Assembly (NCBI RefSeq): GCF_030384885.1
Contig: NZ_CP128613.1
Length of the DNA: 64,000 nucleotides
Direction: 5' to 3' (one strand)
From: Escherichia coli
GTDB taxonomy: Bacteria > Pseudomonadota > Gammaproteobacteria > Enterobacterales > Enterobacteriaceae
Part shown: positions 26,312 through 26,473 of the stretch, one piece after another
How the letters are laid out: each line of letters starts with the position of its first letter
How positions within the stretch are numbered: the first letter of the stretch is position 1
The notes under the pieces: model-generated
Seen by the model: the letters and a program-made list of their open reading frames with translations, nothing else
Told to the model about the DNA's origin: nothing
Databases searched by the model: none
Made by a program: the position numbers and the translations under genes

Positions 26312-26473
26312 ACCGGGTGGAAGGTGAGAGGTTAATGTCTTTCATTTGTGTACCTGATTGCGAACCAATTTAGCATTTGTTGGCTAGATGGTTTCGCAAT
26401 GAACTGTTAATAAACAAATTTTTCTTTGTATGTGATCTTTCGTGTGGGTCACCACTGCAAATAAGGATATAAA
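26312..26473 (+). promoter_or_regulatory. thrS leader with translational operator (approximate extent)
   Basis: Position-based: the thrS leader is known to carry a tRNA(Thr) anticodon-arm mimic bound by ThrRS; the 5' boundary is not determined from sequence. Confidence 0.45.

Follow-up and report, generated by a model that had tools for sequence, protein, structure and literature searches.

What does the long untranslated stretch ahead of the threonyl-tRNA synthetase (ThrRS) gene thrS do in this Escherichia coli genome, and which part of it imitates tRNA-Thr? The question arises in a window of 64,000 nucleotides of contig NZ_CP128613.1, to which all positions below refer and in which the thrS ATG lies at 26474 on the plus strand. 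It is preceded by a 162-nt 5' untranslated leader with a translational operator (26312..26473, plus strand), position 26312 falling at exactly -162 from the A of the start codon. The segment 26312..26480 is identical to E. coli K-12 MG1655, with the nearest difference being one base at 26308, and what has been published on the leader of K-12 thrS consequently holds for the sequence in the window. Upstream of ~26200 the intergenic DNA differs from that of K-12 by a few substitutions and indels. On account of this sequence identity, and of the structure and conservation observed here, we put at about 95% the probability that 26312..26473 forms the 5' leader of thrS mRNA in E. coli and contains the translational operator already known for thrS autoregulation, with its two mimics of the tRNA-Thr anticodon loop. 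The original prediction of a long leader with a tRNA(Thr)-mimicking operator before thrS is thus borne out, both by the 100% identity to K-12 and by the recovery of the four-domain layout of that operator.

Position 26312 (-162) is presumably the mapped 5' end of the thrS transcript: a conserved extended -10 element ends 7 nt before it and fits a start there. This element, TGnTAnnAT at 26297..26305 on the plus strand (TG at 26297-98, -10 hexamer TAACAT at 26300..26305), is invariant in all seven Escherichia/Yersinia-type leaders (alignment A3), a pattern which suggests that it acts as the thrS promoter. Its -35 is weak, and it is consequently absent from the output of our consensus promoter scan. 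In a 3'-end mapping preprint there is no mention of thrS.

The locus itself is nearly universal in the species. Of 5426 complete E. coli genomes, 5425 have a match to a 701-base query around the thrS leader, and in several strains the identity is 100%; only 20 of the 5425 reach at least 99% identity over 26000..26700, so the window represents a minority lineage at that spot. In the annotation of an identical strain the genes follow one another as thrS-infC-rpmI-rplT-pheMST-ihfA. The thrS coding sequence (26474..28402, plus strand; 642 aa), supported by both the open reading frame and that annotation, encodes a protein that matches PDB 1QF6 over its full length, and 1QF6 and 1KOG are among the solved structures of this exact ThrRS. 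It is followed by infC, encoding IF3 (28406..28948, plus strand, same annotation), which starts with AUU and whose translation from ATT reads IKGGKR...; it appears in the list of open reading frames only in a shortened form, 28514..28948, because this start is non-canonical. The annotation of the identical strain further places rpmI at 29045..29242, rplT at 29296..29652, pheM at 29775..29819, pheS at 30103..31086 and pheT at 31101..33488, and, together with the open reading frame, ihfA at 33493..33792 (plus strand). The pheM leader, the attenuator of pheST-ihfA, is recovered at 29769..29893 (plus strand) by the Rfam family Phe_leader with 74.4 bits, the gathering score being 55, and is also annotated in the identical strain. 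On the other side of thrS lies espL1/arpB (24055..25953, minus strand, annotation of the identical strain), an intact 632-aa open reading frame annotated there as EspL1, a type III effector, whereas in K-12 the corresponding gene, arpB, is a pseudogene. Three further regions of the window pass the Rfam gathering score: the RprA sRNA (58562..58669, minus strand; 118.5 bits), STnc540 between ihfA and btuC (33734..33892, plus strand; 67.4 bits) and ES036/CssrF (5854..5896, minus strand; 42.9 bits).

The leader is strongly structured: its minimum free energy (MFE) is -50.7 kcal/mol against -36.7 +/- 3.7 kcal/mol for 200 dinucleotide shuffles (z = -3.75), none of which folds as well. The K-12 ThrRS operator is described as having four domains, of which domains 2 and 4 are anticodon-arm mimics, while domain 1 and the 3' part of domain 3 make up the ribosome site (PMC11088916; PMC9976931; PMC7373986). 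Folding and comparative analysis, set against this published operator, recover the same layout in the window, all on the plus strand and directly before the thrS start codon within the 5' untranslated region (26357..26476). Domain 4, the second anticodon-arm-like hairpin, occupies 26357..26400 (-117..-74) and is defined by the MFE fold, the alignment consensus and the enrichment described below; domain 3 is an A/U-rich linker at 26401..26424, open in the alignment consensus, and the U-rich 3' part of this domain is reported to form the upstream half of a split ribosome-binding site (PMC7297116; PMC3858243). Domain 2, the anticodon-arm mimic next to the ribosome site, spans 26425..26461 (-49..-13) on the evidence of the MFE fold, covariation and a covariance model; and domain 1, read from the sequence, covers 26462..26476 with the Shine-Dalgarno (SD) sequence AGGA at 26464..26467 and the AUG at 26474..26476. 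The SD AGGA is kept in both leader alignments, namely that of 70 distinct segments and that of the seven Escherichia/Yersinia-type leaders.

When these seven leaders are folded jointly with RNAalifold, exactly two hairpins are kept, those of domains 4 and 2, and the linker and the SD are left open. The single-sequence MFE differs in that -56..-51 in domain 3 pairs with -11..-6 at a probability of ~0.7, whereas in the published K-12 model the linker and the SD region are single-stranded. A helix at the 5' end of the MFE structure (-160..-118) is not conserved in the seven-leader consensus and was therefore left out of the operator.

Which hairpin by the SD imitates the tRNA? The core stem of domain 2 is GUGAUCU/GGGUCAC, 26432-38/26446-52, with pair probabilities of 0.88-0.97; below it, U26431 opposite CAC 26453-55 forms an internal loop, and a lower stem joins 26425-30 to 26456-61. 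The stem closes a 7-nt anticodon-like loop, UUCGUGU (26439..26445, plus strand), with CGU at 26441..26443, assigned from the fold and from comparison with tRNA. The anticodon loops of the K-12 tRNA-Thr species are UUCGUAA (thrW), CUUGUAA (thrU) and UUGGUAA (thrT), and the UUCGU of the domain 2 loop equals positions 32-36 of tRNA-Thr(CGU), the product of thrW.

Comparative evidence for this stem comes from 70 distinct 43-nt segments, which were aligned without gaps and chosen by their 3' flank only, not by pairing. In these leaders 98.6% of the cells of the core helix are paired, and six of its seven pairs show changes on both sides, that is, compensatory ones. The covariation score is 0.461 as against 0.208 in shuffles, with 0 of 500 shuffles reaching the observed value, and controls in which the helix was slid along the alignment are 32-46% paired. 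Six columns are invariant: G26442, U26443, A26430, C26453, C26455 and U26456. The first two are the analogues of tRNA G35 and U36, while the analogue of position 34 is C, G, U or A across the 70 leaders, as it varies in the tRNA-Thr isoacceptors. A covariance model from which the Enterobacterales and Gilliamella were left out so as to avoid circularity (R2; 52 sequences of alignment A2) finds 26423..26465 with 37.4 bits and E = 1.4e-8, its sole significant match in the 64-kb window on both strands. Model R1 gives eight matches at E <= 10 in 132 kb; two of the weak ones lie on targets named beforehand, one being domain 4 and the other the anticodon arm of thrT itself (8.8 bits, E = 8.9), not significant alone.

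The original prediction had an anticodon-arm-like hairpin next to the SD, and in this it was right, since folding reproduces one; its stem, 26432-38/26446-52, is not the one that had been proposed. The segment quoted for it, tgtgatctttcgtgtgggtcaccactgcaaataaggatataaaATG, is found at 26431..26476, and the hairpin that does form there is centred 7 nt upstream of the proposed position. What had been put forward as the tRNA-mimicking arm was GUGG (26444-47) and CCAC (26452-55) closing a GUCA loop, and there is something to be said for it: all four of its pairs are complementary in the E. coli sequence, its free energy when folded alone is -4.5 kcal/mol, and CCAC sits in a nearly invariant flank. 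However, it accounts for ~3% of the ensemble (pair probability 0.03 for each pair), carries a penalty of +2.2 kcal/mol if imposed on the fold and is incompatible with the dominant hairpin, because both it and the core stem of domain 2 use 26446..26452. Its tetraloop GUCA lacks a threonine anticodon, and its stem is formed by the 3' nucleotides of the real loop together with the conserved 3' flank. Nor is there covariation to favor it: in the 70 leaders 68.6% of its cells are paired and two are compensatory, the covariation score is 0.023, and a control shifted by +3 columns does at least as well, with 73.2% paired. The conservation of its two strands reflects the sequence conservation of the CAC-CAC segment and of the real stem, not pairing. 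We accordingly consider it highly improbable that GUGG-GUCA-CCAC is the mimic; the tRNA-mimicking hairpin is centred on the CGU-containing UUCGUGU (26439..26445), not on GUCA (26448..26451).

The surroundings of the domain 2 stem show a peculiarity of their own. A26430, the partner A at -44, and the flank C-A-C-U-G (26453..26457) are invariant or nearly so in the 70 leaders, to a degree that exceeds the conservation of the stem, and the 3' CAC of the stem forms with the flank a tandem CAC-CAC facing the 5' GUG. Judged from the alignment, an alternative register of CAC-CAC against GUG is conceivable, and the conservation of A26430 and CACUG hints at either such a register or an unrecognised contact.

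The second arm, domain 4, has an 8-nt loop in the window rather than one of 7 nt, AUUUGUUG at 26375..26382, with UGU at 26378..26380. Its pair probabilities in the MFE fold are mostly >0.9, compensatory changes are present in the seven-leader RNAalifold consensus, and G26379 and U26380 of its loop are invariant in the seven Escherichia/Yersinia-type leaders. By itself, model R1 matches it weakly (26368..26414; 9.8 bits, E = 4.4, not significant alone), and in its search of the 64-kb window the leave-out model R2 does not reach it. We looked across leaders for an upstream hairpin whose stem has 5 bp or more and whose loop carries GU at anticodon-like positions. Such an NGU-loop hairpin occurs in 51 of 80 leaders, where dinucleotide shuffles would give 20.3 and the reverse complement gives 13, and the loop starts cluster at about -90 to -125, that of E. 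coli being at -99. Within the Enterobacterales the region around -100 comes in two unrelated-looking versions, while domain 2 is nearly identical in both: the Escherichia/Yersinia-type, seen in the window and six further loci, has the loop AnUnGUUG, and the Citrobacter/Enterobacter/Pluralibacter-type, seen in seven loci, has a short stem around AGAGUGAA.

How widely is this operator distributed? To answer this we scanned for the ThrRS N-terminus with the pattern MP[V/I]ITLPDG in a random sample with one genome per species, leaving the leader unconstrained, and obtained at least 120 loci. In the domain 2 design, a stem of 7 bp closes a loop of 7 nt whose positions 4-5 are G-U, and the sequence C-A/G-C-U-G/A and an AGGA-type SD follow; among the matches listed, this design is present in 79 of 120 loci, 8-34 nt before the ATG. 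Loci were selected by the 3' flank anchor, and a filter for a U33-like base was dropped as leaders with loops of the UACGUGU type were lost by it; two loci with chance anchor matches (L035 and L088) were removed. The carriers among the matches listed include Enterobacterales, Pasteurellales, Vibrionales, Aeromonadales (Aeromonas), Alteromonadales and Shewanella, and further Pseudomonadales, Pseudomonas, Marinobacter, Oceanospirillales-like lineages and others. Most carriers of domain 2 also have the second NGU-loop hairpin near -100. Domain 2 is absent in the sampled Betaproteobacteria, Methylococcales, Pelagibacterales, cyanobacteria and Thiomicrorhabdus, where the covariance-model search gave nothing near thrS; a 22-bit match in a Pelagibacteraceae genome (L087) was treated as a chance one, lying in a membrane-protein open reading frame 9 kb from thrS.

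Several loci in this sample deserve mention in their own right. Two marine gammaproteobacteria (L072 and L115) have by the SD, at ~-30, a hairpin with a UUGGUA-type loop and without the CACUG flank, which may be a divergent variant of the operator. In eight non-enteric Gammaproteobacteria the thrS locus carries a tRNA-Val(GAC) gene (L041, L100, L102, L110, L072, L115, L071 and L111), with a tRNA 3' end within ~90 nt of the thrS ATG in five of them (L041, L100, L102, L072 and L115); the loci with this gene include operator-less Methylococcales and the operator-bearing L071 and L111 (Pseudomonas neustonica and Halopseudomonas). One locus, from a metagenome-assembled genome binned as Aquificaceae (L049), has a typical gammaproteobacterial thrS operator together with an MPIITLPDG ThrRS, and is probably a mis-binned contig.

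Given this spread, one might see in the two-arm ThrRS operator not a peculiarity of enterobacteria but a hitherto undescribed RNA family that spans several orders and has one more conserved determinant; we regard that as unlikely. The thrS operator is already known, and what is mildly new is that it has no Rfam family despite its wide conservation.

The ThrRS-bound state of the leader would follow by analogy from the literature on the identical K-12 sequence, in which ThrRS binding to the operator, competition with the 30S subunit and relief by tRNA-Thr are described (PMC3858243; PMC7373986; PMC11088916). The homodimeric ThrRS would bind the arms of domains 2 and 4 as it does two tRNA anticodon arms. 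Domain 2 would sit between the halves of the split ribosome-binding site, one being the U-rich end of domain 3 and the other the SD and AUG in domain 1; because it separates these halves, bound ThrRS would block 30S binding and thereby repress its own translation. Free tRNA-Thr would then compete for the enzyme and relieve the repression. We infer that both ThrRS binding and 30S competition take place on the leader in the window.

Two other modes of action have to be weighed against this. The leader could act by transcription attenuation, either T-box-like or through a terminator/antiterminator as in Bacillus thrS, instead of by translational repression; in Gram-positive bacteria thrS is indeed controlled via a structured leader with a leader terminator (PMC3997798), and the thrS leader here is likewise long and structured. 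Yet no T-box or other Rfam 15 family has a covariance-model match on the leader at the gathering score or even at E <= 10, a scan reveals no terminator-like site in 26312..26473, and the conserved hairpin abuts the SD, as translational control predicts, all of which makes attenuation the kind of explanation we would assign almost no weight. Alternatively, the conserved hairpin could be mere split ribosome-site architecture, a translational enhancer or standby site with no protein-binding operator, since it brings the U-rich upstream segment near the SD and split sites are known to enhance translation (PMC7297116; PMC3858243). Architecture alone leaves unexplained the invariant G-U with its isoacceptor-like variation at the position-34 analogue, the identity to positions 32-36 of tRNA-Thr(CGU) and the enriched second NGU-loop hairpin ~65 nt upstream. 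We find it very improbable as the sole role; moreover, the literature reports both roles together, so that the enhancer reading is a subset of ThrRS-mediated translational repression and not an alternative to it.

Downstream of its leader, thrS is the first gene in a block that is a chain of overlapping transcription units. The original prediction had such a chain nested in the preceding coding sequences, with internal promoters for infC, rpmI-rplT and ihfA, and we could substantiate it for two of these three units, infC within thrS and ihfA within pheT; in each case the literature agrees with the top peak of synonymous constraint of the host gene. This constraint was measured as third-codon-position conservation in 8-12 enterobacterial orthologues. 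The consensus promoter scan returned 10 sites in total as against 6.7 +/- 2.4 in shuffles, which is not above chance, and was therefore used only in combination with independent conservation evidence.

The infC gene is transcribed from P0 and P0' inside thrS, as well as from PthrS (PMC6511841). The best consensus match in the scan (10/12), TTGAGA-17-TAAAAT at 28190..28218 on the plus strand, is a candidate infC promoter ~180 nt before the infC start, and the top synonymous peak of thrS (28172..28222; z = 3.5, or 3.75 without Met/Trp codons) lies on it; we infer that it corresponds to one of the named promoters. A second synonymous peak of thrS covers the infC initiation region. The -35 TTGAGA (28190..28195) is made up of a Leu-TTG and an Arg-AGA codon and is unchanged in 11 of 12 species, Providencia being the one that differs. 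TTG and AGA are rare codons in E. coli, AGA especially; given such rarity, TTGAGA would illustrate how a promoter can restrict the codons that an essential gene uses. Secondary synonymous peaks of thrS at 27854..27898 and 27347..27391 have z ~2.0-2.3 without Met/Trp codons, and could mark the other published internal infC promoter, or nothing. The latter, overlapping a hairpin (GGTCCGTTCATGATGGACC, 27356..27374), was rejected, as Met/Trp codons account for most of it (z = 2.0 after correction).

For ihfA, a promoter within pheT, autoregulated by IHF, has been described (PMC8942017). The top synonymous peak of pheT is a near-invariant block at 33279..33323 (0.958; z = 3.9) and encloses a candidate, TTGGCG-18-TAAACT (33289..33318, plus strand), ~170 nt before the ihfA ATG, within which an IHF-consensus-like AATCAGGTAGTTG occurs at 33297..33309. 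From these sequence features, TTGGCG and TAAACT are the probable promoter hexamers. The other scan candidate in pheT, 32919..32948, is not specially conserved (z = 1.6), and 33289..33318 was preferred.

As for the third unit, the rpmI-rplT promoter may lie inside infC. The third positions of infC are uniformly conserved (0.81 vs 0.68 in thrS) without a sharp peak, and the profile is thus uninformative on the rpmI promoter. The literature on the rpmI region concerns the L20 translational operator, which extends into infC; the operator region analysed spans infC nt 214 through rpmI nt 10, the terminator t1 lying in its intergenic part (PMC1888825). Mapped onto the window, it corresponds to 28619..29054 on the plus strand, where it overlaps infC in its 3' part as well as the intergenic sequence.

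Among examples of molecular mimicry in translational control the thrS operator is a classic, and these results leave it as it stands. The gain lies in annotation, since the hairpins of the operator and the internal promoters of infC and ihfA receive exact coordinates and a misplaced hairpin is corrected. More generally, a widely conserved and experimentally validated cis-regulatory RNA without an Rfam family is missed by automated pipelines; with models R1 and R2 and alignments A2 and A4 as a starting point, such a family would be easily built.

Compared with the K-12 thrS operator, the element in the window has the same leader sequence, the same position before thrS, the same two anticodon-arm-like hairpins and linker and the same SD/AUG domain; nothing in the operator differs, although the strain is not K-12. 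With the anticodon arms of tRNA-Thr (thrW CGU, thrT GGU and thrU UGU) domain 2 shares a 7-nt loop containing U33-N34-G35-U36, whereas its positions 37-38 are G-U and not A-A, its 7-bp stem leads to an internal loop and then to a lower stem rather than to a tRNA core, and, unlike a tRNA, it has no acceptor arm. Like the T-box leaders of Gram-positive thrS and thrZ, it is a leader RNA that couples the expression of the synthetase to the status of tRNA-Thr; T-box leaders, however, have the tRNA itself as their ligand and control transcription termination, whereas the thrS operator, by analogy with K-12, would mimic the tRNA, bind the enzyme and act on translation initiation. Closer to home, the L20 operator of rpmI and the IF3 control of infC through its AUU codon resemble it in being autogenous translational feedback with regulatory RNA that overlaps the preceding coding sequence (PMC1888825), but they involve other repressors and other RNA folds, the L20 site being a mimic of 23S rRNA and not of tRNA.
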